From the IMG/VR virus record IMGVR_UViG_3300043449_000929, positions 95-64,094 of that record: a stretch of 64,000 bases of DNA; one strand, written 5' to 3'. This DNA comes from a virus. Taxonomy: Duplodnaviria; Caudoviricetes. The translations under genes and the position numbers were made by a program. Positions 3,916-48,620 of this stretch are shown piece after piece. The notes under the pieces are model-generated. The model was not told where the DNA came from. It ran no database searches and saw only the letters and a list, made by a program, of their open reading frames with translations. Numbering within the stretch: position 1 is the stretch's first letter; each line of letters begins with the position of its first letter.

Positions 3916-5511
3916 CTACTTCAGCTTGTCGATGTCGGCCTTCTTCACACCCAGAAAGATTGCGTGGACCCAAGCAGTTGTTGCCGCGCCAATTGAACTG
4001 AACAGGGCGGTGGTTATGTCTGTCTTGTCTCGCATGACGATATTCTGATTCACGAAATATAAGTCTGATGGATCAATAACTCTGATAGACGTATTGCCAT
4101 TTGCCGCAAAGATATATGTTCCGACCACTGGGAATAGACCGTCGTATGTCTTCGCTGGCGTATAGACGCGAGAGTCAACATAACCAGCGCCATCAGGTAT
4201 TTGCTGCCCCCACATAACAGATGTGTTCTTGTCGGTTCCGAACTCATACGAACCGTCGGAATAGATATACTGAGGGCCGATCTCAGTGTAGCTCGTCGTC
4301 GTATTCCTCACGCTATCCAGACCGAAAAACGTAGCGTTCGCCAATTGATACGCTGTCTGGTCAAGCGAAATTGAACCACTTGAAATAGAAAGCGTGACAT
4401 TGTCCACGCTTCCGTTATTTGAATACACCATGACGCGCTGATTGAGCGGGATAGTCTGAGGCGCGATGGTCGGATTTTTTACGTAGAAATCCCCAGACTG
4501 ATCCGGCCCAGCAGTGCCGCCATCCCAGCCATTGAGGCCAATATACAAAGCGTCGAGCGCCGCTTGATGAGCATCAGCAAAGAACCTATTCGCGAAACTG
4601 ATGTTATTTATTCTGATACCATTCGCCTGCGTCACGCGCGAAAAGCCCCACAGAACGCCCGTCTTGTCCACCGCAGCGACAGAGTCGGCGCGCGTAATCC
4701 ACGGCCTGACGACAGTGCATGTCGGTGTGCTTTGCGAGAAGTCAGCCTTGTTGCCACAGTTGTCATAGAAGACACGGCCAGTGAAATTTATCAGCGGTCG
4801 GCTGGTGTAGACCGCATTCGTTGGCGACGTTACCGCAGGTCCGAGGATGGTGTTATGGACATTGTAGTAATTCAACCGATCCGTATCTGAGACCGTGCCG
4901 TCTGCGGCGATGGAGATATATGTCGCAGCGACATGCAGGTTGCTTGCCGCCTTGAGTTGCGCCGTTCCGTAATACTGCGATGCGCCGCGGCTCCAGCCTA
5001 TTGTCTTGGTCGTGTAGACCTTCTTGCCGAGAGTGTCCAAGTCCTTCATCGGTATGCCGGCGACCTTGTTCACGCCGCCAGAATTGAAGATGACCAGCAT
5101 GTAGCCGTCGTCTTCTTCGCCAAGAAGCTCCCTGACTGCTTGCGCGGAAACCGTGATAGAAATGGCCTCGTTCCCAAACTGGCTCGCATACTTCATGCCG
5201 ACGCCACTGCCGAGTGGCGTTGTCCGCATGTTGATCTGGTTGTCGCTCAGACCAACTTCCTGCCGGAATGCGTTGAGGTTCTGCTTAACTGCCGAGCCGT
5301 ATCGCCGCATGACGGCGGTTTGAATCTCAACCAGCTTGCGGCTGTCATCAGAGAAGGATGTGTATGGTGGCGTCTGCCCAGGCGCAGGCAATTCCTGATA
5401 TTCACTCGGCAGCTCGATAATAATTCTAGCGACCGGAGGCATTTCTCCGGCATGGTCAAACAGATCGCGCGTAAGCGAAAGATCTACGATACGAGACGGG
5501 AAACTAGACAC
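3916..5511 (-). CDS. Putative virion protein
   Basis: 531-aa ORF overlapping upstream stop; beta-rich composition. Confidence 0.65.
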   Translation of the reverse strand: MSSFPSRIVDLSLTRDLFDHAGEMPPVARIIIELPSEYQELPAPGQTPPYTSFSDDSRKLVEIQTAVMRRYGSAVKQNLNAFRQEVGLSDNQINMRTTPLGSGVGMKYASQFGNEAISITVSAQAVRELLGEEDDGYMLVIFNSGGVNKVAGIPMKDLDTLGKKVYTTKTIGWSRGASQYYGTAQLKAASNLHVAATYISIAADGTVSDTDRLNYYNVHNTILGPAVTSPTNAVYTSRPLINFTGRVFYDNCGNKADFSQSTPTCTVVRPWITRADSVAAVDKTGVLWGFSRVTQANGIRINNISFANRFFADAHQAALDALYIGLNGWDGGTAGPDQSGDFYVKNPTIAPQTIPLNQRVMVYSNNGSVDNVTLSISSGSISLDQTAYQLANATFFGLDSVRNTTTSYTEIGPQYIYSDGSYEFGTDKNTSVMWGQQIPDGAGYVDSRVYTPAKTYDGLFPVVGTYIFAANGNTSIRVIDPSDLYFVNQNIVMRDKTDITTALFSSIGAATTAWVHAIFLGVKKADIDKLK

Positions 5512-17407: not shown

Positions 17408-20400
17408 CTACTGTTTCGGTAGGCTGTCGATATACGGCTGGATCATCTGTGTGCGCCGTTTATCCTTCGTCCACCGTGTATGCGGGACGCCCGTCTTCAG
17501 AGCCTTATCCCGCTCTTTGAACTCACGCTTGTATGTGTCTTCGACCCTGTCAACTATGGAGTGGCCGGGGTGGTCGCGCTCGAACTTGCGCGCTTCGGGA
17601 AGCATACGATTGTATGAAACCCTATCCCCGTCGCGCTTCGCTTTGAGCATCCGATTGACGAGTATCCCAGACTCATAGTCCATCGTCGTGTCGTAACGAC
17701 GAAGCGCCTGATCAGACTCCTGCTCTCTGGCAAGAGGCTGTGGCTTGAAGCCGATAGCCTGGACCGCAACGCCAGTGGGCGTCACTTTGGCGTTTGGTAT
17801 GACGCGACCACGGTTGTCCCGATACGTGCCAGAAGCCGCTTGCTGACCAGCGAGGATCATGTTGCGGCCACCAGCCGGGAACAGCGAGGCGACGGCCCCG
17901 ATAAGATCGCCGTTGTTGTATTTGTCGTAGCCGCGCGCCAATTCCTCGACGACGCTCTCGCCAGCGCCCATTCGGGACGCCGCCCACTTCTTCATGGCGG
18001 GGGCCATCGGTCCACGATCCAGCAGGAAGGACGGAACAGGCGCGAAATCAGCCTCGGAGGTTCGCCCAGAAACGTCCATGCCAAGTAGGCGCGACGGACC
18101 ATGCGCGAGGGCGTCACCGATGGAGTGTCCGAACGTCACTTCAAGGAAGTTCGCGAAGGACTGCTTCATGTCATACGGGCCAGCTTCAGGCTTAACCTTG
18201 TCGTGAAGCTTGTCGTAGATCGCGGAGAAGACCGCCATGCCGGGGAGGCCAAGAGCGCCAGCCACAGCAGCCGTCGCGGCGGCGTGGCCGAGCATGAAAC
18301 GCCACGCTTCCTTGCGGGCTATAGCAGCCTCTTCTGGCGTAGCCCCCGGCGCATGAGAAACAATCGCGTGCATCTCGCGATACATCTTCTCAGCAGCCAT
18401 CATCCAGTAGGATTGGAAGACGAACGCAAGCTTTGTAGTGTTGCCAAACAGACCCTTTGGCCCGTTCGCCGTCATCAGCGCGCGGTTGTCGTTCCCGTAA
18501 TTAAATAACGCCTCGTCGATTGTATGACCGGCGTAGTCAACCATCTTATCCCAGGCCGGTGTTCCAAACTCAGCCTTGCCGTGGCGCTGCTCGAAAACCT
18601 TCTTTGCAGCTAGCGCCATCTGGACGCGAGTAAACGTCTCGGCGTAGTAACCCATCATTGAAGCTGAGCGAGTGTAGGAGTCTATGCCCCTCTCGAACTT
18701 GCCGCCATCGAGACGCGCATTGGCAATGTGGCCCAAGCTTCTATTGATGCCACCAGTATCAACGTGTCCGCGGTTAATGACGTTGATCGCGAAGCGTGTA
18801 TTCTCGTCGTCCAATCTCGCCCGTCTTAGCGCCTCTGTCGTGATAGGCATGTCTGTAATCGCAAGACCACCTGCATTCCACGCCTCACTCCAGACAGCGC
18901 GCATAACCTTGTATGCGTCTTCAGTAGACGCCGCTACAGCCGTAGCCGCCTTCATATACCCGACCTTTTTGGACAGTTCGGGGATACCGTATGTGGCGAC
19001 CTGAAGCGGCTGAAGAATAGCAGTGGACAGGTTAAAGCCGAGCATCTTTGAGAAGACCATCGACTGGATCATATCCTGCCACGAACCACTAAGGTTCAAC
19101 TGGCGATCTTCCTCACGGCCCATCGCGTGGTTATAAAGCGCAGCAATCGTCTGCTCGTATTCATGCAGCCTGTGATCGACGTTCTTCGACGCCTCCCAAA
19201 CCTTCTTGAAATCGCCAAGCCTGTCGTTGACCTCGTCTGTTCCGAGAAGGTTCGAGAAATGCTGAGCGACTTCAATGGACTGCTTTGCGAGCGCACGGAA
19301 CGGGTCTGCTTCAAAACCGGCGACATACTGCCTATGAAGCTGAGATTTGGCGGCAGAAGCATCCGGCATGAAATGAATCGCCATGTTGCGAAGCATGGTG
19401 ATCTGGTCGTCTTTTTTACGCTTCAACGCCTCGGCCATTCTGGAAGACGCGCCTTCAGGCGGTGTGAACTCGTCGCTCGCCTCTAGCTCCTGAATCATCT
19501 TCTCGACAAGGCGCGAGGCAGAACCGCTCTTGTTGAAAAGATCCATATCGCCGCTTTTGATATTATCTTTCTGGACGGCTCCAGCCTCAGACAATTTGAT
19601 GATCGTGCGTTTCAGATTGGCGATCTGCGCCGTATTGTCTGAGCGAATGAACACATCAGGCTGATGAGACAGCGGATCAATAACGACATTAAAGCCGTCA
19701 GCCTTCACAGCATCCTGAACAGCCTTCAGCGCTTCCGGCAGGATCATACCTTCGCCATCCGTAGCGATAGTGAAGGACAGGCCGTGCTTACCCTGGCGCA
19801 TAAGGTGCGAATAGACTGTGTCTTTCAGCCTACCCTTATTGCTCTCGATGTTATCGACATATTCCTGAAGCTGCGGATCTGCGGAGACTTTTGTCTCTTT
19901 TATGTAGTCATTGCCAAGGCTGTCTTTTGCAATTTCTTTCTTCGTGACTTCAGGCAGGCGAGACAGAAGTTCTTTTGCGATTTGCGTCAAGTCGTTCAGC
20001 GATGAAACCGCGTGCGTCATCGCGCCGTTCGGAGACATATCGGCGTCTGGATTATTCAGCAGTTCATGCGCGGGACTTACGAGACGAGCGAGCAAATCGG
20101 CGTTCGACTCTTCCTTCATGTTCTTATTGCGCTTCAGGTAACGATACAGAACAGCCGCCGCTGGCATACTGAAGTTCGTCTCATACTGAGCGCGCATATT
20201 CTCTAGGACAGACGAAGCTTTCGGATCTTTACTTACCGTCGTGTAAGCTTCGCGCGCCTTGTCGTAGATGTCGCGATAACGACCACCCTCGTTACGAACG
20301 CGCGGCGTCTGCCTTTCCCAAGGAACAGACGGGTCAATGCCAAGCTGGTGTGCGGCCTCAACTTTCAGCGCGGAATCAAAAGCCGCACGCGCCGCTCGAT

Positions 20401-23400
20401 CATTAGCGACAGCCTTCATTTCAGCTTGGGTGTGTAGCGCGTTCGCCTGCATACGCTGGTTCATGGCGTTGCGCTTTTCACGCTCGACATTCACCGCGTG
20501 AAACTCTGGAACGAGCTTCCCATACATAACGTCATGATGATGCTCAGTCGTGACGTATAGCCCCAGCGCACGAAGCGCCTGCCCGACTTTGCCCTCTTTC
20601 ACAGACCGCGCGAACCGCGCATAGGCGCTATTAACGTCATCCACCGAGCGGAGAGGATGGCCGGAATAATCACGGTCAGGAAGCTTTGGAGGTTCAGGCG
20701 GCTCACCACCTCCACCACCCCCGCCACCACGTGGAGGTTTGCCGCGACCGCCACCGCCAGGAGGGGCCGCAATGATTTCATCAGCCGTGCGAGGCGTCGC
20801 AGCTTCAGGCGGCAACGGCGGAACAGCAGGAGCCTCACCCAGCGGCCCACGTATTGCCGGTGCGCCAGCGGGACGGTCTACGGGCTGCTTCACATTCGGC
20901 GGGTCGGGGAGCCTGACAACACCTTTCGGCGTCTCTACAAACTTCGCCTCTGTCCCACCGACTCTACGGACGATGGCATTTTTCTCTGCTTCCTTGACGA
21001 ACTCAGCCTGAACCTGCCGATACGCGGTAGCGCGAGGATCGCCGGAGCGCTCCATGTCGGAGACAACCAGATCGAACGCCTCTGGATCTTCCTTGATAAA
21101 CTTCTGCGCCTTGACGACATCCTGCTTTAGAACGCGCGACGGGACGGGGGCAGGTGCGCCTTCGGCTGGTTCGGAGAACGCCGACTCAGAGAAGCCAGCA
21201 ACTTCCGGCCCGCCACTAATCTCTGCCTTCGCCCCACGAACAGCGTCTTCCGCGCTAAACTCGCTCGGATTATCTGCCCACAGTTTTGCGGCGCGCGAAA
21301 TTACGTTCTGTTTCTCGTCAGGGAACTGTTCACGGATCGCCTTGCGGTTATCCTTCAGTATTTTCTGATGCTCGGCGTCCGCTTGCTGCGCGTAATATTC
21401 GTGAGCCTGATCCTGATCGGCGGAGGAATACGCCCGCTCGCCGCTGTGCAGAAGATCGACTAGCTCATTCGGGCCGGAACCTTCAGGCAGATAACCCAAC
21501 TCAACCCCAAGGCGCGCGGCTTCGTGAATATCAATTCCACCAAGACCAAGCTGCTCGCGTTCAGCCTTATCGGTAATGTCGTGACGCTCAGCGCGGACCT
21601 GCATCTCGATAGGGTCGGCCCTATGAAGAACTGTCTGCACGCCTTTCTTCGTAACGACCTCATCCTTGTCGCCAACCGGAGCAAGCTTCTCCAAATGGCC
21701 GCGCGTGTCTGGTGTTCCAAAGATACCGCCTTTGGCCTGCAACAGTTCATGAAACGGCTGCGGCTCTGATACGCGCGCTGGCTTTTTCTGCTTTTCGTCT
21801 AGCAACCCCTGGAAAGCAGCAGCCTCGTCCGCGCCGCTATCGCTGATGCGGAGAGAACCACGCTCGTCTTTGGCGAGATTGGAGATTGCTTCGCCAATTT
21901 TACCGAGTGCAGAAGGCTTCGGCGCAACTTCAGCAGCACTTACGGGCTTGCTCTCGCGAACCTTGAAACCCTGATTCAGCGCCATGCTGACTTCGTCAGC
22001 CATCCATCGCTGATCGGTTTCACCGTATTCGCGATGACCAATCGGACCTTTCTCGTCGAACGATGTCATGCGATAGGGCTTGCCCTCCAAGCCGGGGCTT
22101 AGAACAAGCGTCTGACCGTCCTTCTCAAGAATAAGCTTGGGCTTCGGCTGCTTCAGCGCCTCTTCAATAAGAGACTGCGCTTTCGCCCCACGCTCTTTAG
22201 ACGCAGCCATCAGCGCCTGTAGATCGGCCTTCGGCTTCGGCGCTTCAGCCAGCATATCCGGCTGGGCCGTATTCGCTTCATCGAACATGCCGCCAGCGGG
22301 AGCCTGCGCGCGATCCTTGCCAAGCGGCCTTTCGGCCATAAGAGCCATACGATCTTTGTCAGTGACAGGATCGACGCCGTCGATCAGAAGCTGCTCCTTG
22401 CCATCAGCTCCAGTTTCGGAACCAATTTTAAGAGAGCCGCTTTCGTCGCCAAGAACGCCCTTGAATAACTGAAACGCACGTGAACGCAGTGTATCGCCAC
22501 CTTGCTCTGCTGCCGCAATACGCTGATCGAGCGTGCCATCTCGCGCAGCACGTTCAGCCTCAACCATGTATTGGCGAGGAACGTCAGGCGGGGCTACTTC
22601 TTGAGGAGCGGGGGTTTCGCCTTCGTCAAGGAAACTGACGCTACCATCTACAGTTTGCGGACGCGCGGCTGGTTGCTGTTCCGGCTCCAGCATCTGCTTC
22701 GTTACAGCATCAAGATCCTGCGTCGGCGTATTGCCAGACAGCCGCTTGATAACGCGGCCAGCAACTTCGCCAGCACCGCCCATTCCAACGCCACCAATAA
22801 ATCCGGTGACGATGCTATCAAACATATCCTTGGTTTTGTCTTCAGGCGTTACGTCAGGACGGAAGCTATGGCCGATAGCGGTCTGCGCGCCAGTCGCCAG
22901 CGCATTATCGACGCCAACCTTTGCAACGTCCTTTGCTGCGTCTAGCATTGTGCGGCTTGCCATCTGCGAAGCCGTATCTGTCGCAGTCTTGGCGACAGCC
23001 CTACCAAATATACCTGTGGCTGCAGACGGAGCGATAGCGTTCAACGCAGCAGCCGGGACACCCCAGGCCGCAGCACTCTGAGCTTGTTCCTGCGTCGGCT
23101 CGCCAAGACCTTGCGCTTGGTTGCCCTGCCTTACCTGCTCATAGTTATAGCCAACCGCTTGAGGAAGCGCCGCCAACCCGAAACCAAGTCCCGTAGCTGC
23201 CGCCTCCGGCAGAACAGGAGACAAAGCAGCGCCAGCCACAAGACCGCCAGCAATAGGCGCAGCACCGCCCACCAACTGTCCAGCTTGGTTGAGAAGCCAC
23301 GGAGCGGCATTAGACCAACCTCCACCACCCTCTCTCCAAGGCGCTGTTTGAACGGACGGGTTTGCATATTGAGCAGCTTCCGCAGCTTGCTCATCAGCGG

Positions 23401-23587
23401 ATTTTTCCCAATCACGGGCTGTGTCCTGAAAGCCAGCAGCGCGCGCGAGACCAGCTACGCCAGCGTCGAACATCGACTGACCTGTATTCCACCCCTGCTT
23501 CACGCCAGAAGTGAAATTATCGAGCGGCCCCATCTGCTCACGCAGGGTCGGCAGCGGCAGGCGATTTTTATCGAGCGGATATGGCAA
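17408..23587 (-). CDS. Large internal virion / DNA ejection protein
   Basis: 2059 aa, helical, position in head-tail arm; YSHLMRQG resembles the PLxRFG motif. Confidence 0.7.
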   Translation of the reverse strand: MPYPLDKNRLPLPTLREQMGPLDNFTSGVKQGWNTGQSMFDAGVAGLARAAGFQDTARDWEKSADEQAAEAAQYANPSVQTAPWREGGGGWSNAAPWLLNQAGQLVGGAAPIAGGLVAGAALSPVLPEAAATGLGFGLAALPQAVGYNYEQVRQGNQAQGLGEPTQEQAQSAAAWGVPAAALNAIAPSAATGIFGRAVAKTATDTASQMASRTMLDAAKDVAKVGVDNALATGAQTAIGHSFRPDVTPEDKTKDMFDSIVTGFIGGVGMGGAGEVAGRVIKRLSGNTPTQDLDAVTKQMLEPEQQPAARPQTVDGSVSFLDEGETPAPQEVAPPDVPRQYMVEAERAARDGTLDQRIAAAEQGGDTLRSRAFQLFKGVLGDESGSLKIGSETGADGKEQLLIDGVDPVTDKDRMALMAERPLGKDRAQAPAGGMFDEANTAQPDMLAEAPKPKADLQALMAASKERGAKAQSLIEEALKQPKPKLILEKDGQTLVLSPGLEGKPYRMTSFDEKGPIGHREYGETDQRWMADEVSMALNQGFKVRESKPVSAAEVAPKPSALGKIGEAISNLAKDERGSLRISDSGADEAAAFQGLLDEKQKKPARVSEPQPFHELLQAKGGIFGTPDTRGHLEKLAPVGDKDEVVTKKGVQTVLHRADPIEMQVRAERHDITDKAEREQLGLGGIDIHEAARLGVELGYLPEGSGPNELVDLLHSGERAYSSADQDQAHEYYAQQADAEHQKILKDNRKAIREQFPDEKQNVISRAAKLWADNPSEFSAEDAVRGAKAEISGGPEVAGFSESAFSEPAEGAPAPVPSRVLKQDVVKAQKFIKEDPEAFDLVVSDMERSGDPRATAYRQVQAEFVKEAEKNAIVRRVGGTEAKFVETPKGVVRLPDPPNVKQPVDRPAGAPAIRGPLGEAPAVPPLPPEAATPRTADEIIAAPPGGGGRGKPPRGGGGGGGGEPPEPPKLPDRDYSGHPLRSVDDVNSAYARFARSVKEGKVGQALRALGLYVTTEHHHDVMYGKLVPEFHAVNVEREKRNAMNQRMQANALHTQAEMKAVANDRAARAAFDSALKVEAAHQLGIDPSVPWERQTPRVRNEGGRYRDIYDKAREAYTTVSKDPKASSVLENMRAQYETNFSMPAAAVLYRYLKRNKNMKEESNADLLARLVSPAHELLNNPDADMSPNGAMTHAVSSLNDLTQIAKELLSRLPEVTKKEIAKDSLGNDYIKETKVSADPQLQEYVDNIESNKGRLKDTVYSHLMRQGKHGLSFTIATDGEGMILPEALKAVQDAVKADGFNVVIDPLSHQPDVFIRSDNTAQIANLKRTIIKLSEAGAVQKDNIKSGDMDLFNKSGSASRLVEKMIQELEASDEFTPPEGASSRMAEALKRKKDDQITMLRNMAIHFMPDASAAKSQLHRQYVAGFEADPFRALAKQSIEVAQHFSNLLGTDEVNDRLGDFKKVWEASKNVDHRLHEYEQTIAALYNHAMGREEDRQLNLSGSWQDMIQSMVFSKMLGFNLSTAILQPLQVATYGIPELSKKVGYMKAATAVAASTEDAYKVMRAVWSEAWNAGGLAITDMPITTEALRRARLDDENTRFAINVINRGHVDTGGINRSLGHIANARLDGGKFERGIDSYTRSASMMGYYAETFTRVQMALAAKKVFEQRHGKAEFGTPAWDKMVDYAGHTIDEALFNYGNDNRALMTANGPKGLFGNTTKLAFVFQSYWMMAAEKMYREMHAIVSHAPGATPEEAAIARKEAWRFMLGHAAATAAVAGALGLPGMAVFSAIYDKLHDKVKPEAGPYDMKQSFANFLEVTFGHSIGDALAHGPSRLLGMDVSGRTSEADFAPVPSFLLDRGPMAPAMKKWAASRMGAGESVVEELARGYDKYNNGDLIGAVASLFPAGGRNMILAGQQAASGTYRDNRGRVIPNAKVTPTGVAVQAIGFKPQPLAREQESDQALRRYDTTMDYESGILVNRMLKAKRDGDRVSYNRMLPEARKFERDHPGHSIVDRVEDTYKREFKERDKALKTGVPHTRWTKDKRRTQMIQPYIDSLPKQ

Positions 23588-27965: not shown

Positions 27966-29293
27966 TTAAGCGGTGGCGAGAACTTCCAAACGAGCCATCC
28001 AGGCATCGTTCAGAATGACGGTCGTGGTGTAGAGCTTCCAACCAACGGTGCCGCGCTGAGCCAGCGGATCGCCAGCAGCAGGCTTCGGATTCACAACCAT
28101 CGGCGTCATGCTCGACTTGCCCTTCAGCGGGACAATGCCAAAGGCATCGCGACCGAAGACAAGGATCGGGTAAACGTCTGGATAGCTGGAAGCCGTCGAA
28201 CGGTAGGTCGTGGTAGACGCGCCACCCGAAGTCGCCGCGTCCGTAAACGGAGCGATGATCGTCGAAGTGAGGAAGCGGATCTGTTCGACCGAACCGATCT
28301 CACCGGGAAGCGGCGATGTATGCGGGCCGTAATCCGCAACCGCCTTGAAGCCCGCGAGCGAACGAATGTCCGTTTCGAGGTCAGGGTGGCAAACCGCAAA
28401 GTAAGCACGCTCGACAGACTTCGTGTTGTAGTCAGCGGAAGAACCGATGACCTGCGAAATCTTCTGCGCGTTCTGACGGTTCAGGCCAGTCGCAACACGG
28501 CGAAGGTCAGCAAGCGACAGAGCAGAAGCAAGCAACTGACGGTTTGCAACCTTGTTCGCGTAGAAGACGTTGGTACCCGCCTTCAGCACATTATATCTGA
28601 GCGTCTCTACTGTAGACGCAGCGGATTCACCGAGAACATCAGTGGCCTGCTCAAGCACCGAGTCGGTGTGAGTGTCCATGATGACATCAGTGATGGTGAT
28701 GTAGTCACCATACTGAGCGACAGTCGCCGTGTAGTCCTGATTGGCGAGCTTGTTGCCAACAGGGGTCACGCCTTCAACCAGCGGGGTCGTCGCCAGCGGG
28801 ATGAAGAACGGGTTAGACGCCGAGCCGGAACCAGCAGAGCCGGTCGCGCCGCTAAGGAAATAGCGACGGAACTTGGCAGTCTGAGTGCTGTTGGTCGGGA
28901 GCGGATACGCCTGACCGAATTGCTCAAGCTGAAGGAGGGGCAAACCGCGCTTCAGCATTTTCACAACGGACCCTTACATCTTCACCATTGGTCGCTAATC
29001 AATGATCGCTTCTGTTATGAAGCTGCTGCGTGTTTCCACGCAGAAGAGACTATATCTTCACCCTCTTTCGAGGGGCTGGGAGCTTCGGACCGCTTGGCCC
29101 TACGAGTCGCTACACTCTAGTCGTTACACCTTACTGCATACGCAGTCTTGGCTCGGTATTGCCCTCGTCATTACACGTTAGGGTGTTCACCGACTTCACC
29201 CAGTCACACTACGCGATTGCTCGCGCACGGCCCCAGTCAGATTAAGGCAGCAACCGCAGGCGAAATATCGCCGTAAGCGGTAATCTGAGCCAT
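27966..29293 (-). CDS. Major capsid protein, N4-gp56 family; spliced join(29293..29245, 28972..27966)
   Basis: Exon 1 MAQITAYGDISPAVAA with GGAG RBS; exon 2 has KFRRY, PLVEGVTP, QYGD, GEIGSVE, DPLAQRGTVGWK, ILNDAWMARLEV. Confidence 0.92.
28973..29244 (-). ncRNA. Group I intron (272 nt, no ORF, IA-like)
   Basis: Exon ends in U, intron ends in G; P7 GACUA/UAGUC with GAAGAUAUAGUC; P2, P8, P9 GNRA-capped hairpins; removal restores capsid frame. Confidence 0.92.
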
Positions 29294-29398: not shown

Positions 29399-30253
29399 TC
29401 AAATAGGCTTGTGCGAGAACCTAATATCTACAGGCGCGATGAGATCTTCGCCGCGCTTGCCCGCGCGATAGCGGTTTTTAACTAGGTGATAAGATAGGCC
29501 GTATTTATCTGCGATTTGGTGGCGATTAATAAACTCGCCTCTGATCTCAATCCTCTCGGCGTGCTGCTCGAAATAAGCCTTCTTACCCCGGCTAATCCCG
29601 ACTGACCGCTTAGCCATAACGTCTGGCCGCTTAGCCAACTCTGCGCTAATGATCCGGCGCTTCTCCCTGAGAGCGGGGTCGCGCATGGCCCGCGCGTGGT
29701 TATTCCTGCGCCGTGCTTCAATCTCCTTGTCGGCGCGCATTGCGTCTAATTGCTCAATGCGCTTTGCATAGACTTCAGGCTCACTTAGCTTCGCCTTCAA
29801 CGCCTCACTGTGGCGACGCTTTGAAGCACCAACTAACGGCGCGACGCAGTAACCGCCAAGATTAAGATTCGCAAGAGTGCCACCCTCATCAGTTATTCCG
29901 TAATGCTCAATCAGATGCTTCTCTAACGACAGGGCCTCGTCATTAGTCAGGCTCTCAATGATCTTGAATATCGGAAGATTGCCGTGCTTTTCGTAATCGG
30001 CGGCAAGAATGAAATTGGTATGTTTTCCGCCAGCAGCAGAATGCTTTCGAATACGTCTCCCGCTTCCCTTCCCTACGTATCTGGGTGTGCCGTCAGGCAA
30101 TAGGATTAGGTAGACGTAGCATCTACGCTCGGACTCAGTGCTTAATGAAACACAACGCAAAAACCGCTCGGCCTCGAACTTAGCAGTTCGCAGCGTTTCA
30201 GCGATCTTGTCTTCGGGGGATTGTGAGTCTAAGTAGTCTTCAGCCATCTTCAT
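29399..30253 (-). CDS. Free-standing GIY-YIG-family endonuclease
   Basis: YVYLI...PRYVGKGSGRR...H...EA..LE..LI...LAN; C-terminal IRGE...QIADKYG...G..GEDLIAP module like that of 25758-26588. Confidence 0.85.
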   Translation of the reverse strand: MKMAEDYLDSQSPEDKIAETLRTAKFEAERFLRCVSLSTESERRCYVYLILLPDGTPRYVGKGSGRRIRKHSAAGGKHTNFILAADYEKHGNLPIFKIIESLTNDEALSLEKHLIEHYGITDEGGTLANLNLGGYCVAPLVGASKRRHSEALKAKLSEPEVYAKRIEQLDAMRADKEIEARRRNNHARAMRDPALREKRRIISAELAKRPDVMAKRSVGISRGKKAYFEQHAERIEIRGEFINRHQIADKYGLSYHLVKNRYRAGKRGEDLIAPVDIRFSHKPI

Positions 30254-41200: not shown

Positions 41201-41515
41201 AATTCTTTCCATTCTTTCCAGCACCCCTACATACATCGAAAAAGATATGGTTAAGCTCAAGTGTATTTTGGAGCTAAACACTTTTGTGCGGAAAGAATGG
41301 AAAGAATGATTTTGAGAGAGAGAGAAAGAATAATAAAAAAATATATATATATAAATACAACTACTTACTACGCCTTACCCCTGTCTATAACGCTTAAGGT
41401 CAAGCGCCATTCTTTCCATTGGAAAGAATTTGGAAAGAAGGAAAGAATTAACCGCAAGCTTTGCATTTATGCGTTCTTTCCCACGGAAAGAATGTCTCCG
41501 GGAAGGAAAGAATAG
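41201..41515. repeat. Iteron-like GGAAAGAA cluster around AT-rich core; candidate replication origin
   Basis: About 11 copies in both orientations flanking taataaaaaaatatatatatataaata. Confidence 0.65.
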
Positions 41516-41626
41516 AGGCGTTGGCGCACTAGACCGCCCGCACAATCTCCCGCCCACATAGCACCCACCCTGCCACGCCTCGCACCGCCCGCGACACTTT
41601 GTCGCACATAAATCTAACTAGCTATA

Positions 41627-41655
41627 TTGACTAGTGAGAAAGGCGGGACTATAAC
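41627..41655 (+). promoter_or_regulatory. sigma70-type early promoter
   Basis: TTGACT-N17-TATAAC directly upstream of the small-gene operon. Confidence 0.8.
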
Positions 41656-41702
41656 TAGTTTTGTTGGACGTTACAGCGTCCCGCACAAAGGAGAGAGAGA
41701 CA

Positions 41703-41981
41703 ATGCGTGACGCTTTCCACTTTTACGCTGATCCCGGCCATGGCTGGCTTCGCGTGACTGAAGACGACCTGGCAGACGTTGGCCTGACCGCCGACAGCTT
41801 CAGCCGTTACAGCTACGTGAACGGCCCGCGCTTCTACCTTGAAGAAGACTGCGACGCCGGTGTGTTCCTCGACGCTTACACCGCCAAGCGTGGCGCGGCC
41901 CCCGTCATTTTTGAACACCACTCAAATGGCGACAGCCTGATCCCCACCTATACGCGCCTTCCTGGCGCAAACCGCACCTAA
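41703..41981 (+). CDS. Early hypothetical protein
   Basis: AGGAGAGAGA RBS; DPGHGWL...YLEEDCDA motif. Confidence 0.8.
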   Translation: MRDAFHFYADPGHGWLRVTEDDLADVGLTADSFSRYSYVNGPRFYLEEDCDAGVFLDAYTAKRGAAPVIFEHHSNGDSLIPTYTRLPGANRT

Positions 41982-41982
41982 A

Positions 41983-42036
41983 GGCCGAAACGGGGGTCCG
42001 CCCCCGTCTTCCCGTGACGCGGGAACTGACGAGGCC
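41983..42036 (+). ncRNA. Hammerhead ribozyme, type II
   Basis: GGCC-GAAA-stem III(CGGGGG/CCCCCG)-UC-stem I(UUCCCG/CGGGAA)-CUGACGA-GGCC; GUC cleavage triplet 42006-42008. Confidence 0.92.
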
Positions 42037-42081
42037 AGCCGTTACAGCGGCGCACCGAGCAGAAAACAGGAGAGAGAGACC

Positions 42082-42975
42082 ATGGCAAAGAGAGACCTAC
42101 ACGCCGAAATCACCGCCCGTATTGTGGCGTTGCTCGACGCTGGCACGATCCCGTGGCGCAAGCCCTGGAGCGAGACCAACACCGGCTTTGGCGCCATGCC
42201 GCGCAACGCCGTGACGCGCCGCGCCTACTCCGGCGCGAATGTCGTTCTGTTGTGGGCTACGGCCCAGGAACGCGGCTATGAACAGCCCCGGTGGGCGACG
42301 TTCAAGCAGATCGCAGAAGCGGGCGGCAACGTCCGCAAGGGCGAGAAGTCAACGCCGGTTATCTATACGAGCAGCATCGAGAAGACCGACGAGGAGACCG
42401 GCAAGCTTCGCCGCATCGCCTTTCTCAAATCCTTCAACGTCTTCAACATCGCGCAGTGTGACAACGTGGACGCTCTACAGGAAGAACGCGCGCCGCGCAT
42501 TATCAACCCCGGCCAGCGCGACGAGATCGCGGAAGGCTTCATCGCCTCGACCGGCGCGGAAGTCAGGCACGGCGAGGCGCGCGCCTACTACACGACAGCG
42601 GGAGACTATATCAACCTCCCGATGTTCGAGAGCTTCACCAGCGCGCCGGAATACTACAGCACCGCCTTTCACGAGCTGACCCACTGGACCGGCGCATCGC
42701 ACCGGCTCAACCGGGAATTTGGCAAGCGCTTTGGCGATCATTCCTACGCCGCCGAGGAACTTGTCGCGGAACTTGGCTCAGCGTTCGTTTGCGCCGAGTT
42801 CGGTCTGGACAACCACACCTTGGACAATTCCGCAGCCTACATTGCGTCATGGAAAAAGCGCCTCACGGAGAACGATAAGTTGTTTGTCGCCGCCGCCTCC
42901 CACGCATCCAAGGCCGTTGACTTCATGCGCGGCCTCGCTCTTGAGGCCGACACAGAGGAGCCAATCGCAGCATGA
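42082..42975 (+). CDS. ardC: ArdC-family antirestriction / ssDNA-binding protein with zincin-like domain
   Basis: PWRKPW, YSGAN, WATFKQ, VRKGEK, FNVFNIAQ, HELTHWTG, YAAEELVAE. Confidence 0.92.
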   Translation: MAKRDLHAEITARIVALLDAGTIPWRKPWSETNTGFGAMPRNAVTRRAYSGANVVLLWATAQERGYEQPRWATFKQIAEAGGNVRKGEKSTPVIYTSSIEKTDEETGKLRRIAFLKSFNVFNIAQCDNVDALQEERAPRIINPGQRDEIAEGFIASTGAEVRHGEARAYYTTAGDYINLPMFESFTSAPEYYSTAFHELTHWTGASHRLNREFGKRFGDHSYAAEELVAELGSAFVCAEFGLDNHTLDNSAAYIASWKKRLTENDKLFVAAASHASKAVDFMRGLALEADTEEPIAA

Positions 42976-43059
42976 CGTTTGCCTTTTGGGGGCGGGACCG
43001 AACATCCCGCCGCCCAATGGGGAACCGTTACAGCGGGACCACAGAAGGAGAGAGAGACC

Positions 43060-43482
43060 ATGGGACTCGATATGTATCTAAACGGAAGGCTTTCTATCAT
43101 TCCGAAACGGGACGACAGCGAGCAAAAAATCGACGGGAAGCGAGTCAAGGAAATAACCGTTGAGTTAGGATACTGGCACAAACATCCCGATTTGCATGGA
43201 TATATCGTCAACACTTTCGCGGGCGGGGATGACAATTGCCAAGCAATCCGCCTCGACCGGGAAGACGTTGAAAAGATCATATCCGCCATCGAGAACGACG
43301 ACTTAGCCCACGGGACGGAAGGATTTTTTTTCGGGAAATCCTACCAACCCGGCGAAACAAACGAATACGGATCATACGAAGATCAGAAAAAGGACGATCT
43401 AGAAATCTTCAAATCAGCCATCGAATGGTTGAAAAATGAAGACGATAAAAACTGGCGCGATATTGAATACGAAGCCAGTTAG
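43060..43482 (+). CDS. Early hypothetical protein (MGLDMYL family)
   Basis: MGLDMYL...ELGYWHKHPDLHG...GFFFG; strong RBS. Confidence 0.85.
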   Translation: MGLDMYLNGRLSIIPKRDDSEQKIDGKRVKEITVELGYWHKHPDLHGYIVNTFAGGDDNCQAIRLDREDVEKIISAIENDDLAHGTEGFFFGKSYQPGETNEYGSYEDQKKDDLEIFKSAIEWLKNEDDKNWRDIEYEAS

Positions 43483-43574
43483 TGAGCCTCACACCCTGCC
43501 CATCAGCAACGGTGGGCAGACTGGGAAGCTTACAGGCAACCCCCGCTTTACAGAGCGGAGACAGGAGAGAGAAC

Positions 43575-43670
43575 ATGCAATCGACCTTGCTTATCATGGA
43601 AGCGACCGCCGCCGCCATCCTGACGACCGTTTACGCGCAGCCGGTGGTTGCGTGGCTTATCGCGAAGTAA
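43575..43670 (+). CDS. Small hydrophobic peptide (31 aa)
   Basis: Preceded by TTACAG hairpin and AGGAGAGAG. Confidence 0.55.
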   Translation: MQSTLLIMEATAAAILTTVYAQPVVAWLIAK

Positions 43671-43680
43671 GGGGCCGACG

Positions 43681-43863
43681 ATGTATTACACCTACAGCAG
43701 GCACCGCAGCAGGGACGCCGCCGAGTCCGCACTGGAGGAGTATTTCGCGACCGGAGAAGTCAGCGACGGAGAATGGCCGCGCATTAAATATGAGCGAAGC
43801 CGTGGTTGGTTAGTCCAGTTCTACGACTGGACATATCCGACCTTTGAAGCGCCGACACGCTGA
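43681..43863 (+). CDS. Early hypothetical protein
   Basis: AAGGGG upstream; 60 aa. Confidence 0.6.
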   Translation: MYYTYSRHRSRDAAESALEEYFATGEVSDGEWPRIKYERSRGWLVQFYDWTYPTFEAPTR

Positions 43864-43951
43864 GCCTCACGCCGGGGGCGGGTGACGCCGCCCCCCACGG
43901 GAAGCTTAGGCGACCTGCCGTCTTACAGGACGGTCACACAGGAGAGAGAAC

Positions 43952-44134
43952 ATGCGCAAACAGAAGAACACGACCCGCAAGGCCAAGAACGCCGCCAATA
44001 TGGAATCGACCCATTGGGACTTTTTCCTATACAGCGGCGAATGGTTTGCCCGCCTTTCATTCCCCGACGCTAAGACAGTCCGCAAGCTGTTTCCTGGCGC
44101 CAAGGTGGAAGGGCAAAGTGTTTATTTAGCCTGA
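43952..44134 (+). CDS. Early hypothetical protein
   Basis: Hairpin + AGGAGAGAG RBS. Confidence 0.7.
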   Translation: MRKQKNTTRKAKNAANMESTHWDFFLYSGEWFARLSFPDAKTVRKLFPGAKVEGQSVYLA

Positions 44135-44218
44135 CCCTTTCGGCATAGGGACGGACGCCCGCCCCTATCGCGAAGCGGTCAGCTTCCCGCGTTACAGCGC
44201 GGAATATAGGAGAGAGAG

Positions 44219-44563
44219 ATGATAAACTGCAAGGTTCAAGCAAACGGCGATTTGCTAGTCACAGCCGACAACGAGGCGCGCAACTATATCCGCGAGCATA
44301 TCGAACGCGGCTATTGGACGACGTTTTATGAATTGTTCGAGCCATTCTTTACGAATGGTTCCTATGAGCCGTTCGACGCCGGGAACGCTGATCCTTTTGT
44401 CGGGCTTACAAGCGCACCGTGCATCGCTGAGGCTATCTGTCATCCAGACGAAGGCCCCCGCAAAGTGGATGGCCGTCTATGGTGGTTTCCGAACTACATG
44501 GTTTGCGACCCGCTGGACGAGCTAAAGAATAAGGGCCGCACCGTCTTTGCGCTTGCGGAATAA
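44219..44563 (+). CDS. Early hypothetical protein
   Basis: Hairpin + AGGAGAGAGAG RBS. Confidence 0.8.
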   Translation: MINCKVQANGDLLVTADNEARNYIREHIERGYWTTFYELFEPFFTNGSYEPFDAGNADPFVGLTSAPCIAEAICHPDEGPRKVDGRLWWFPNYMVCDPLDELKNKGRTVFALAE

Positions 44564-44611
44564 CCCCAGCCTATTCCCGCGTTACAGCGCGGAATAAAGG
44601 AGAGAGAAGCC

Positions 44612-44893
44612 ATGAGCGAGCAAATAAACTTTAAGCGCTTCCACAATTTCGAGGCGCGCTACCATCGCAACGGCATTTGCGGCGTTGGGTTCTACGCTTG
44701 CAAATTCCTGTATGTTGACGAGCGAGGACGCGCCATCGACGAAATCATAGCCGCCTACTTTCCCAAAGATGGAGAGACAGCAGAATATTATGCGGTAATG
44801 TCCGATGATATTGGATGCAGATGGCGCGGCGATCATTTCGTTGACGACCTACGCGACGCAATAGAAACCTACGGCGCTTTGGCCCACGCCTGA
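44612..44893 (+). CDS. Early hypothetical protein
   Basis: Hairpin + RBS; YHRNGICGVGF...WRGDHF motif. Confidence 0.8.
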   Translation: MSEQINFKRFHNFEARYHRNGICGVGFYACKFLYVDERGRAIDEIIAAYFPKDGETAEYYAVMSDDIGCRWRGDHFVDDLRDAIETYGALAHA

Positions 44894-44974
44894 CCCCAGC
44901 CTATAGAGCGTCAGTCCCGGCTGGCGCTTTATGGGAAGCGGTTACAGCCGTTTCGTTAGAAGGAGTAGAGAGCA

Positions 44975-45259
44975 ATGAGAAAGATCAGAATAACGGCCAA
45001 GTTCGAGAACAGCCCGCAAACGCTTGGATGGATTGCATGGGTTACGGGGGATGAATACGGGCCGCACTATCTAGGCAACACGCACACTTCTTTTTGTGAA
45101 GCTATAGAAACAGCGGCACGAGTCATTATGTCGCAGAACCCAATGGCACGAATTTCGAGCTATGATCCAACGCCCGCGCAAATGAAAAAAGCAGCGCGCG
45201 CCGTCGCATGGCAAAACGATCAATCGTTTTTTACCCATGACTGGGTGAAAATTCAGTAA
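44975..45259 (+). CDS. Early hypothetical protein
   Basis: Hairpin + AAGGAG RBS. Confidence 0.75.
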   Translation: MRKIRITAKFENSPQTLGWIAWVTGDEYGPHYLGNTHTSFCEAIETAARVIMSQNPMARISSYDPTPAQMKKAARAVAWQNDQSFFTHDWVKIQ

Positions 45260-45271
45260 GGAGCCACGCCA

Positions 45272-45487
45272 ATGCGTAAACTTATAACCGCCGCCGCCTT
45301 CCTGGCCGCGACCGCTGCTAACGCCGGTTACTTATATGAGCCGCCGCAGATCAGCCCATACGAGCGGAACCAGCGCCAAATGCAGCAACAGCTCGACGAC
45401 ATACAAAGGATGCAGCAGCTCCAAATCATGCGGCAGCAGGAACAGCTAGAGCAGCAGCGCCGGGATATGATGCTTTTTGGACGCTAA
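45272..45487 (+). CDS. Small secreted Gln-rich protein
   Basis: Signal peptide MRKLITAAAFLAATAANA; AAGGAG RBS. Confidence 0.7.
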   Translation: MRKLITAAAFLAATAANAGYLYEPPQISPYERNQRQMQQQLDDIQRMQQLQIMRQQEQLEQQRRDMMLFGR

Positions 45488-45494
45488 ACAAACC

Positions 45495-45527
45495 GCCCCC
45501 GGCAGTTACAGCTACCGGGGGCTTTTT
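45495..45527 (+). terminator. Rho-independent terminator whose loop is TTACAG
   Basis: GCCCCCGGCAG-TTACAG-CTACCGGGGGC-TTTTT. Confidence 0.8.
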
Positions 45528-46247: not shown

Positions 46248-48620
46248 CTATTTTAGAAACGTGTAAGACACAGCCTTGCGGCCAACGTGCTTGCTGTCTT
46301 CGCCTACCAGCTCCTCTATCCGCTCGGATTCTTTCAGCGCAGACAAAACCTCTTCAAGTCTCCGAGACGGGAGACGAACACTCCGAATAAGACTCGCGCG
46401 CGTGGCTCGTTTATTCCGCTTCAAAAACCCGAGAACCTTATTGACCTCGCCCTCCCAGGACGAATCCGAAATCTTATCCTCTGAACTGACGACCATGCTA
46501 TCGACGCAGGAAAAGACAAACTCTTCCGCCCAAGCGAGATCCGTTACGGTCACGGCTGGCTTGCGCCAATCAATCCCGATGGCACGAATGGTTGCAACCT
46601 TAATCGTATTCTCGGCGGCGCGGGCGTAGAGCGGACTTATGTCGTCCCGCATTTTGTCAGCACGATCTTCTATGTCTATCCAAGCCAGCTTCGCTTCGTC
46701 GTCTGCAAATGGGACAAACTCAGGCGGCGCTGTTACCGGCGTGACGCCATCACCATGAAACGGAGCGGAGGTAAGACCGTCTCGGTGATAAACACCCCGG
46801 CAAGCTTCAATCAGGTCAGCAGGAACATCACTCGCAAAGCTTTCTGGTTGCAGCTTTGCTGGTTTGTCGTCGCTTTTGATAATGATGAAGCGATTAAGAA
46901 GACCATTTGTTATCTCCGACGCAGACAGCCGTGAATATAGTTCGTCCTCTGTTGCTACGCCGAAAATAATTAGGTGCGGCCAATAAATTCGCGCAGCCTG
47001 CCGTGCGGCGGATTCTGAAGAAGTGAATATCCTGAACGACGCCGACCACAGTGAGCGATTGGTTGACGACAGCCCGGTTTCGTAAGAAGCCGCGTTCCGG
47101 CTTGACCCCTTACCCATGAAGTTAGCGATCTCATCCATGCAGCAAATGAGATTAGGCTGGCGGGATAAGGCGCTGGTTATTGATACGTCAGACTTAAATT
47201 CTGACGGGCCAAGATGGTTCTCTAGACCGCAAGCGCGAACGACTTCGGCAATGCAGTCAAGAGGGTGCTGCTTCCCGTATCCGGTTGGGCAGCAGCAAAT
47301 CATATAAAGAGCAGTTGATGATCCAGTTGGGCCGCGATACTGGCGTCCCGCGAGCAACCCTACCGTAGCGATGGCCGCAGCCATAGCAAACATTGGCTGT
47401 TGACGGCGCGCAGTATGGTTGCCATGCGCGGCAAGCATACCGAGCAGCCCAGGCGCCTGAGTTATATCCATGAGTGACTTATTCGGGCGAGGCGCGATCT
47501 CCGCTTTGACGGGCGGCAGTTCGATAGGCGCGGCAGGCGCAGGCTCGGCTTCGACCGAATCTTGCTCAAGGCGATTAAGCTGCGACAGATCGACCTTCAC
47601 GTAGCCTTGCAAAATATCGGACAGGTATCGGAAGGCTTCGCCAGAGGTGAGACGACGCGCGCGGGCGACGAGATCAATCGGGCTATATCCCTTATCACCG
47701 TCTCCGAAATCGACGATGGTATGGCGATGGACGTTGATCTTCAGATTGCGTTCACGGTCAGCGTCGGCCTTCCCGGTTCCAGACTGCGACCAGACACCAA
47801 CAGCCTCAAAACCAGACGAGGTTCTGCGCAGCTTGAACAGGTTCAGCGCCAGAATCCATTTCTCAGGCTGAGACCATGCTTCTTCGTTGAGCTGGCGGTA
47901 AGGGTGACTGTCATCGAAGTTCTGAAAACGCGGGTCGCCAGCTTTTGCTGCTTTGTCCAAAGCATAAGAGTGCGGCATCGCGTCAGGGTTATAGCCGTGT
48001 TCGCGCAGGACGTTGGACAGAATCTCGAACGTGTTCTCCGGCAGCTCAGGAAGATCGCTCGGCTCTATCTCATCGAGGGCGTAGTTCCCGGTCCAGACAT
48101 AAGGAACGCCAGTCTTAGGATGTATCGACGGCGGCAAAACAGTCTGCTTTCCTTCACCGAGAACATCGACCAGACGCACGATCCGACCGTCAGGCTTTGT
48201 CCCGTTGAAGAAAGATGAAACGACTGTCTTTGAGCGGAAAAAGAATGTCGCGCCTTTCTGGCCGCGCTTGACGACATCAGTGTAAGGCAGCGCGCGACGA
48301 ACATCATCAACGGCGTCGTCATCGTCAACGTCTATTGCGACGACATACTGAGACGCGCGACCAAGGACGAGACAGATACCGCCGTCTGGTTTCTCCGACC
48401 AAGAATTAACCTGCCATGTTGACGGCATGTTAGTGGCGTAGCGTGAAGTCCAGCTTGTCATGGGCCTCCATTCACCGGAGTGATAGTCGGCTGGTATCTT
48501 GTCTCCAGGCATACACGGAATAACGCAGAAGCCATGCTCGATTAGCTTCTTGCCATAAACACCATAGGGGGAAGTCAAGGCGCATCTCTCCCGCACGAAC
48601 AAATCCAAATCATCAGGCAA
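46248..48620 (-). CDS. Bifunctional primase/polymerase fused to DUF3987-type helicase
   Basis: VIP..PGDK.P, AIDVD, TVLPPSIHP; Walker A PTGYGKQ, DE, GLLNRF; start approximate. Confidence 0.85.
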   Translation of the reverse strand: MPDDLDLFVRERCALTSPYGVYGKKLIEHGFCVIPCMPGDKIPADYHSGEWRPMTSWTSRYATNMPSTWQVNSWSEKPDGGICLVLGRASQYVVAIDVDDDDAVDDVRRALPYTDVVKRGQKGATFFFRSKTVVSSFFNGTKPDGRIVRLVDVLGEGKQTVLPPSIHPKTGVPYVWTGNYALDEIEPSDLPELPENTFEILSNVLREHGYNPDAMPHSYALDKAAKAGDPRFQNFDDSHPYRQLNEEAWSQPEKWILALNLFKLRRTSSGFEAVGVWSQSGTGKADADRERNLKINVHRHTIVDFGDGDKGYSPIDLVARARRLTSGEAFRYLSDILQGYVKVDLSQLNRLEQDSVEAEPAPAAPIELPPVKAEIAPRPNKSLMDITQAPGLLGMLAAHGNHTARRQQPMFAMAAAIATVGLLAGRQYRGPTGSSTALYMICCCPTGYGKQHPLDCIAEVVRACGLENHLGPSEFKSDVSITSALSRQPNLICCMDEIANFMGKGSSRNAASYETGLSSTNRSLWSASFRIFTSSESAARQAARIYWPHLIIFGVATEDELYSRLSASEITNGLLNRFIIIKSDDKPAKLQPESFASDVPADLIEACRGVYHRDGLTSAPFHGDGVTPVTAPPEFVPFADDEAKLAWIDIEDRADKMRDDISPLYARAAENTIKVATIRAIGIDWRKPAVTVTDLAWAEEFVFSCVDSMVVSSEDKISDSSWEGEVNKVLGFLKRNKRATRASLIRSVRLPSRRLEEVLSALKESERIEELVGEDSKHVGRKAVSYTFLK

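Follow-up and report, generated by a model that had tools for sequence, protein, structure and literature searches.

The stretch of DNA analysed here, hereafter the window (64,000 nt; positions 95 to 64,094 of IMG/VR virus record IMGVR_UViG_3300043449_000929), makes up nearly all of the record of an uncultured phage, which is complete at 64,094 bp and has direct terminal repeats. The phage is from freshwater, as the only DNA run containing the sequence is labelled freshwater metagenome, and it has no close relative among 50,697 deposited phages, in which only pieces of ardC with 60–80% identity were matched. The subject of this report is a type II hammerhead ribozyme motif at 41982–42036 on the plus strand of the window, in a 100-nt same-strand spacer between a gene of 92 aa (gene 1) and ardC, the gene of a predicted anti-restriction protein.

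The hammerhead motif and the genes beside it

Direct reading of the sequence gives, at 41982–42036, a complete type II hammerhead with all of the core nucleotides and three helices (all features of this section lie on the plus strand). The parts follow in type II order, i.e. the 5' strand of stem II, GAAA, the stem III hairpin, C17, the stem I hairpin, CUGANGA and the 3' strand of stem II, and the topology is that of type II, with stem II open towards the flanks and stems I and III closed by loops. After an unpaired A (41982), the 5' strand of stem II (GGCC, 41983–41986) leads into the core nucleotides G12 A13 A14 (41987–41989) and then into stem III (41990–42007), which consists of the A15.1-U16.1 pair and six G-C pairs (A-CGGGGG, 41990–41996; CCCCCG-U, 42001–42007) capped by the loop UCCG (41997–42000). 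C17 (42008) is followed by stem I with its loop (42009–42025), composed of UUCCCG (42009–42014), the G-C-closed loop UGACG (42015–42019) and CGGGAA (42020–42025). The core nucleotides C3 to A9 (CUGACGA, 42026–42032) and the 3' strand of stem II (GGCC, 42033–42036), which pairs with 41983–41986, complete the motif; the next base, A42037, is unable to lengthen the helix. Both core segments and C17 are placed in this way by the sequence alignments to the Rfam model and to the model R1 described below.

Stems II, I and III have 4, 6 and 7 pairs, respectively, with zero mismatches, and the core nucleotides C3 U4 G5 A6 N7 G8 A9, G12 A13 A14, A15.1-U16.1 and H17 are all in place. According to Perreault et al. 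2011 (PMC3088659), candidates without standard pairs beside the core are to be rejected; in the window these pairs, G42033-C41986 (10.1-11.1), U42009-A42025 (1.1-2.1) and A41990-U42007 (15.1-16.1), are all standard. The triplet preceding the cut is GUC, the next base is U42009, and the minimum-energy structure of an 86-nt stretch is the exact three-way junction. A folded hammerhead junction cuts 3' of C17 and leaves a 2',3'-cyclic phosphate and a 5'-OH end. The predicted cleavage site, after 42008, is where the first-pass annotation had put it, and the full type II core which that annotation described is accurate to the base. Judged from its sequence, 41982–42036 is a genuine type II hammerhead motif.

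Upstream of the motif lies gene 1 (41703–41981; TAA stop codon 41979–41981), which is preceded by a Shine-Dalgarno (SD) sequence. Its 92-aa product has 25 relatives in IMG/VR and represents a phage protein family of wide distribution and unknown function; the ESM Atlas clusters into which it falls are viral hypothetical proteins, and no Pfam or PHROG family was found for it. Downstream, a hairpin with a UUACAG loop (GCCG-UUACAG-CGGC, 42038–42051) and an SD region, AGGAGAGAGAGA (42068–42079), precede ardC (42082–42975; ATG at 42082), which encodes 297 aa. The product contains the N-terminal single-stranded DNA (ssDNA)-binding domain PF08401 (ArdcN; 136.8 bits, cut-off 22.6, E 5.7e-40) and the zincin-like metallopeptidase domain PF18818 (MPTase-PolyVal; 151.4 bits, cut-off 27.5, E 1.7e-44), and it matches PHROG 7245, anti-restriction protein, with an E-value of 1.4e-90. 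By its ArdcN and MPTase-PolyVal domains the gene is a true ArdC, with a predicted anti-restriction function, and the ribozyme lies directly upstream of it in the same-strand spacer, as had been claimed in the first pass.

Rfam, the model R1 and the UGACG-loop subfamily

Rfam family Hammerhead_II (RF02276) matches 41983–42044 with 36.1 bits. The E-value is 4.1e-6 when the local stretch is searched and 0.0012 when the whole window is searched against all 4227 families. A check against the Rfam hammerhead models, as the first-pass annotation had proposed, therefore finds the motif, but at a score below the gathering cut-off of 37 bits, which is an operational threshold of the database and not a property of the RNA. 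Because of this the hammerhead is not listed by a default Rfam scan, which lists a group I intron elsewhere in the window and nothing more, and no other Rfam ribozyme class is found in the window at E ≤ 1. The 3' tail of the hammerhead, CAGCC, agrees with the Rfam consensus tail. The hammerhead of the window has its catalytic core in common with the type II hammerheads of RF02276 and of PMC3088659, and like them it lies between genes of phage DNA, on the same strand as the genes; it differs in loop I, which has 5 nt (UGACG), whereas the Rfam model has 10 positions.

Relatives with the same loop were collected from IMG/VR with a pattern that fixed only the core, GUC, the 6+5+6 spacing of stem I and its loop, and the loop sequence UGACG. 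The pattern matched at least 119 stretches, 102 of which are distinct among the matches listed. Neither stem I nor stem II pairing forms part of the pattern, and a perfect stem I (6/6) together with a perfect stem II (4/4) is present in 91 of the 102 distinct matches listed; a three-stem filter was passed by 92 of them, and the other ten or so look like chance matches. Alignment A1 comprises 91 sequences, the rows of which were pre-filtered for pairing, and the covariance model R1 was built from A1 minus the window. Pairing is found in 97.9% of the cells of A1, as against 33–48% with slid partners and 64.6% in shuffled alignments; pre-filtering raises this percentage, but it does not raise covariation. 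Cells in which both partners have changed number 422, compared with 136.5 in shuffles, and 11 of the 15 pairs change on both sides across the 91 relatives.

Several features that the pattern did not impose are common to the family. An A directly before stem II and a G-C pair closing loop I are present in all 91 members of A1, and the window agrees in both. As the column of this A belongs to the family alignment, the start of the motif, given as 41983 in the first pass, moves one base earlier, to A41982. In only two of the 92 relatives among the matches listed does a U follow stem II (the window has A42037), so that stem II is held at four pairs. A stop codon lies -1 to +3 nt from stem II in 75 of the 92 relatives (+1 in the window), and a start codon is found within 40 nt downstream in 80 of them; the distance of 45 nt in the window is at the long end of the family range. 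The window therefore shares with the subfamily its stems, the stop codon before and the SD and start codon after, whereas in the window alone the hammerhead is then followed by the phage's own UUACAG hairpin.

R1 scores the motif at 72.7 bits, with an E-value of 1.3e-19 for both strands of the 64-kb window. There is no second hammerhead in the 64-kb window by this model: the next match (47080–47123, minus strand) has 16.4 bits and a broken core. The RF02276 cut-off is passed by only three of 12 loci with clear hammerheads of the UGACG-loop subfamily; of the remaining loci, one is below the cut-off and eight are not listed at E ≤ 0.01. The Rfam model thus under-scores the subfamily, and the near miss of the window is typical and no sign of decay.

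As aligned here, the UGACG-loop subfamily is large and mostly phage-borne; its stem I spans 6 bp and its stem II exactly 4. In IMG/VR the subfamily is common, with at least 92 clear copies among loci L111–L229. When the species genomes of GTDB were scanned, 12 of the 80 matches examined (loci L236–L315) passed a check of stems I and II and 68 failed; two of the 12 (L255 and L299) look like chance matches, which leaves about ten convincing copies, mostly in metagenome-assembled genomes of the Polyangiaceae type. The subfamily is rare in these bacterial species genomes and, by these counts, mainly viral.

These searches also bear on the possibility that the motif is a chance likeness to the hammerhead consensus in G+C-rich intergenic DNA and no ribozyme. 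The motif is simple, and random matches to its consensus in large databases are noted in Perreault et al. 2011 (PMC3088659); here too, the pattern gave about ten chance matches among the 102 listed in IMG/VR, most of the genome-contig matches failed the stem check (68 of 80), and the score lies under the Rfam gathering cut-off. However, all three stems form in the window, unlike in the chance matches, the family features that no pattern imposed are present, the orientation and intergenic position fit the family, and the R1 E-value for the window is as low as 1.3e-19. A chance likeness is, on balance, hardly credible.

Hammerheads beside other ardC genes, and the operon of the window

Type II hammerheads were detected by RF02276 (E ≤ 0.01) in four of 50 related records, namely L012, L013, L101 and L102. 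About 50 nt separate the end of the ribozyme from ardC in L012 and L013, whose ArdC is 48% identical, and the syntenic, ardC-linked hammerhead of L012 has the same loop I as that of the window with all three stems different. In L149 and L200 (ArdC 33% identical) a type II hammerhead again lies upstream of ardC, whereby ArdC identity among the three upstream-hammerhead lineages compared is only 33–48%. In L101 and L102 the hammerhead follows a small gene, which is itself downstream of a gene with a gene-1-like domain. R1, applied to 80 ArdC loci and 20 gene-1 loci, gave ten matches; seven of the 80 ArdC loci are positive, and six of the nine matches within ArdC loci adjoin ardC. Three of the loci (L041, L046 and L079) have the hammerhead directly downstream of ardC.

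One further locus, L038, contains three type II hammerheads in a row (2897–2964, 4098–4169 and 4608–4678), the first directly before ardC, where it is followed by TTTACAGACAG ahead of the SD sequence, and the other two after the small genes that follow. This triple corresponds, for ardC, to the group of three published for ardA. Hammerheads are also clustered in L161, where the UGACG-loop copy is preceded, at a distance of about 1.1 kb, by a second type II hammerhead (416–476, plus strand; Rfam 34.0 bits).

Inspection by eye of the 260 nt upstream of ardC in the nine nearest ArdC loci (L002–L010, 57–61% identical) disclosed no hammerhead core. Among the matches listed, the hammerheads of the subfamily are followed by 81 distinct open reading frames (ORFs), three of which are ArdC and one ArdA. 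In the loci compared, the link between hammerhead and ardC is recurrent but not obligatory, and because the denominators are small the association should be taken as suggestive only. A literature search found no published link between hammerheads and ArdC.

In the window the motif belongs to a plus-strand operon of roughly 3.9 kb with eight genes, in which it occupies the junction of gene 1 and ardC and, according to the R1 scan of the window, no other junction. A candidate promoter of the sigma-70 type (TTGACT-17 nt-TATAAC, 41627–41655, plus strand) was read by eye, and a second, overlapping candidate (TTGTCG-18-TATATT, 41599–41628, plus strand) is the sole match of a promoter scan; both are weak candidates, the one site of the scan comparing with 3.2 expected in shuffles. 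The first of the UUACAG-loop hairpins (GGACG-UUACAG-CGUCC, 41666–41681, plus strand) would stand at the 5' end of the transcript of the operon or close to it. Downstream of ardC there are about six further small genes (43060–45259, plus strand), with starts at 43060, 43575 (31 aa, uncertain), 43952, 44219, 44612 and 44975; no family was found for the five other than the ORF at 43575. The likely end of the operon is a terminator-like hairpin at 45495–45522 (plus strand), with eight G-C-rich pairs and a run of T, which shares the UUACAG loop.

The hexamer TTACAG occurs on the plus strand of 41666–45522 at 41671, 42042, 43028, 43548, 43923, 44192, 44582, 44942 and 45506. Apart from the terminator, it forms the common 6-nt loop of eight hairpins with differing stems of 3–7 pairs, one before every gene of the operon. 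Each gene is preceded by such a hairpin and an SD sequence, GGAGAGAGA, and each hairpin is followed by 6–20 nt and then by AGGAGAGAGA and a start codon. In appearance the hairpins are a recurring RNA signal that could act as an operator, a stabiliser or a processing site; they matched no known family. As a general partner of the ribozyme the UUACAG hairpin was rejected: TTACAG follows the hammerhead in only three of 92 relatives and in L038, and the three relatives represent one lineage and form no hairpin there. A pattern of the motif plus SD gave six single matches in IMG/VR, which is approximately the chance level by a rough estimate, and none of them forms a hairpin. The UUACAG hairpin is therefore specific to this phage and cannot be a general part of the ribozyme.

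Two other repeats lie near the motif. An exact 13-nt direct repeat, CAGCCGTTACAGC, is present at 41801–41813 and 42036–42048 (plus strand), the first copy inside the coding sequence of gene 1 and the second running from the final base of the hammerhead into the UUACAG hairpin; with up to two mismatches there are 11 matches against 1.46 expected, and only these two are exact. Further upstream, 41202–41513 contains 12 copies of GGAAAGAAT on both strands, nine of them exact (all of the exact copies in the window). They surround an AT-rich stretch at about 41330–41360, in a divergent intergenic region upstream of the promoter candidates; the array is iteron-like and perhaps marks an origin or a repressor-controlled early promoter region.

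Elsewhere in the phage, the group I intron of the Rfam scan (29026–29254, minus strand; 62.1 bits, above the gathering score) is flanked by a GIY-YIG endonuclease-like ORF (29399–30253, minus strand) and an ORF with a phage capsid domain (27966–28964, minus strand), and the capsid gene may be interrupted by the intron with its neighbouring homing endonuclease. Among the structural genes lies the phage's largest gene, a 2059-aa ORF (17408–23587, minus strand) for which there is no Pfam match at E ≤ 0.01.

Probable processing of the operon transcript

The motif, its membership of the family, its position and the recurrence of the arrangement lead us to regard it as probable that a genuine ribozyme cuts the transcript of the operon in two between gene 1 and ardC and uncouples the fates of the two parts. 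From these observations we infer cleavage, its rate in the cell and its effects on stability or on ardC expression. The transcribed spacer would fold into the three-way junction and cut itself after C42008. The upstream RNA, i.e. the leader and gene 1, would then end one base past the G-C-rich hairpin of stem III with a 2',3'-cyclic phosphate, and the downstream RNA would carry its 5'-OH right at the stem I hairpin and continue through the UUACAG hairpin and the SD sequence into ardC and the genes behind it. With its 4 bp, stem II would permit the two pieces to separate, and the two halves of the operon would become separate, hairpin-capped molecules whose decay and translation are uncoupled.

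As there is only one hammerhead in the phage, the 3' product would comprise ardC and about six genes up to the terminator at 45495–45522. The first-pass annotation had proposed the release of a separate ardC mRNA from the polycistronic transcript. Processing of this kind agrees with the proposal in Perreault et al. 2011 (PMC3088659), but the product would contain those further genes as well as ardC. Excision of ardC as a single-gene mRNA, or its circularisation, is ruled out by the lack of a second hammerhead in the window. It was also supposed in the first pass that the transcript is early and the ardC mRNA stabilised, and both may be so.

Activity of comparable elements is on record. According to Perreault et al. 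2011 (PMC3088659), prophage genes including ardA are flanked by type II hammerheads, whose proposed role is mRNA processing; the set around ardA in A. tumefaciens cleaves both in vitro and in E. coli, three Legionella strains have a hammerhead with ardA directly behind it, and of the 18 consensus hammerheads that were assayed, 14 showed activity. Cleavage in vivo is likewise described for three type II hammerheads that lie in phage-derived regions of D. vulgaris. As to stability, a study of E. coli circuits (PMC7536230) modelled uncleaved RiboJ transcripts with a decay twice that of cleaved ones.

A number of results weigh against cleavage of the operon transcript as set out above. The RF02276 score is 0.9 bit short of the gathering cut-off (36.1 versus 37 bits). 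The folding energy is unremarkable for the base composition (z -1.46 and -1.51), although these z-scores are uninformative in so G+C-rich a context. In the minimum-energy fold of a 231-nt context, stems I and III are kept and the 4-bp stem II is replaced. Neither RF02276 (E ≤ 0.01) nor R1 finds a hammerhead in L002–L010, and with the nine closest ArdC loci devoid of it the ribozyme would be dispensable for ardC expression in general. Of the 81 ORFs downstream of subfamily hammerheads, 72 are without a known Pfam family, so that the link to anti-restriction genes is merely a tendency. Lastly, a partner for loop I of the form GU[CU][AG] is absent from offsets 1–5 past stem II in the window. Such a partner is present in 27 of the 92 relatives, and the GUCA tail is missing from the other 65. 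The only stretch complementary to loop I in the window is GUUA at 42041–42044 (offset 8), inside the loop of the next hairpin, and at offsets 6–13, including offset 8, a partner of loop I is missing from all 92 relatives. In Perreault et al. 2011 (PMC3088659) the loop I pseudoknot was critical for fast cleavage in the ribozymes tested and is present in the majority of type II motifs, while only about 40% of all hammerheads use it. With the canonical pseudoknot not at its usual place, fast cleavage at cellular Mg2+ is not assured.

A rival reading is that the hammerhead is a passenger, which travels with small phage gene cassettes as a boundary element or a recombination relic and has no adaptive role or is too slow for one. 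Its occurrence is sporadic (four of 50 related records by Rfam and seven of 80 ArdC loci by R1), its side relative to ardC, upstream or downstream, differs between lineages, and the nearest ArdC relatives lack it; the absence of the canonical pseudoknot, and the exact 13-nt repeat that brackets the 3' part of gene 1 together with the hammerhead, point in the same direction. A decaying relic would not, however, be expected to retain the core and all of the subfamily-specific positions, which are intact here. Moreover, since the gene 1 protein is homologous to its relatives on both sides of the upstream copy of the repeat, no insertion junction is visible. A mere passenger seems improbable to us.

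Also unlikely, if somewhat less so, is that the ribozyme is real but that its cleavage is gated or serves a purpose other than constitutive stabilisation. Ribosomes terminating at the adjoining stop codon, or a factor binding the UUACAG hairpins, might control folding and cleavage; alternatively, the ribozyme might be an insulator that gives ardC a defined 5' untranslated region, or it might lower, not raise, the expression of one half of the operon. The stop codon is 1 nt from stem II in the window and similarly close (-1 to +3 nt) in 75 of the 92 relatives, from which it follows that a terminating ribosome would cover the 5' strand of stem II; but genome compaction alone would also pack the motif tightly behind the stop codon. 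GUGAC (42014–42018, in loop I) can pair with GUUAC (42041–42045) in the loop of the adjacent hairpin, and regulated cleavage of phage hammerheads was raised in Perreault et al. 2011 (PMC3088659). Against this, no relative among the 92 has a loop I partner at offsets 6–13, and the UUACAG hairpin is specific to this phage and hence no general part of the ribozyme. The most elaborate version, in which loop I GUGAC kisses GUUAC of the operator-like UUACAG hairpin and a hairpin-binding factor or a stalled ribosome decides the cut, is very doubtful; if it were true, release of the anti-restriction mRNA would be tied to the state of infection.

For the insulator variant there is an engineered parallel, RiboJ, in which a hammerhead and a 23-nt hairpin precede the ribosome binding site, so that the order of hammerhead, hairpin and SD at the locus of the window is that of the synthetic layout (PMC7536230). 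Cleavage of RiboJ gives a 5'-OH transcript with a defined, structured 5' end, as is proposed here, but RiboJ removes a short leader, whereas the ribozyme of the window would remove an upstream gene. RiboJ is built on a type III satellite-RNA ribozyme, and the likeness is one of mechanism and not of family membership.

With cleavage into two hairpin-ended halves retained as the probable reading, two natural systems may be compared. In phage T7, RNase III cuts the early polycistronic mRNA, which includes an anti-restriction gene, between cistrons and leaves hairpins at the ends of the products. The agent in T7 is a protein enzyme that acts on long double-stranded sites, whereas here it would be self-cleavage of RNA, and only one junction of the eight carries a ribozyme. 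The ardA systems (the prophage triple of Agrobacterium tumefaciens, and the hammerhead-ardA pairs of Legionella; PMC3088659) have, as here, a hammerhead upstream of an anti-restriction gene in a same-strand phage block. They differ in the gene, which is here ardC, encoding an ssDNA-binding and metallopeptidase protein unrelated to the DNA mimic ArdA; and, in contrast to the A. tumefaciens triple, the single ribozyme here would not release ardC on its own as a one-gene mRNA.

Already in 2011, Perreault et al. had published the motif class, its abundance in phages, its flanking of genes, its association with ardA and the idea of mRNA processing. The literature search did not find the pairing of hammerheads with ardC in print. 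The UGACG-loop subfamily is defined here; no description of it as such was found, although no literature search was aimed at it and the supplements of Perreault et al. 2011 may already contain it. Knowledge of the class is unchanged, and what the locus offers is a clean example that can be tested, together with a better model for searches: a true ribozyme motif was missed by the default Rfam threshold by 0.9 bit, and RF02276 detects the subfamily poorly.

For the biology of these phages, ardC joins ardA as an anti-restriction gene that is repeatedly found beside hammerheads. The type II topology would leave both products with hairpin ends, which suits the cutting of polycistronic transcripts without exposing the halves to exonucleases. 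The recurrence at ardC is in keeping with self-cleavage as a means by which phages might decide what becomes of their first mRNAs in a new host.

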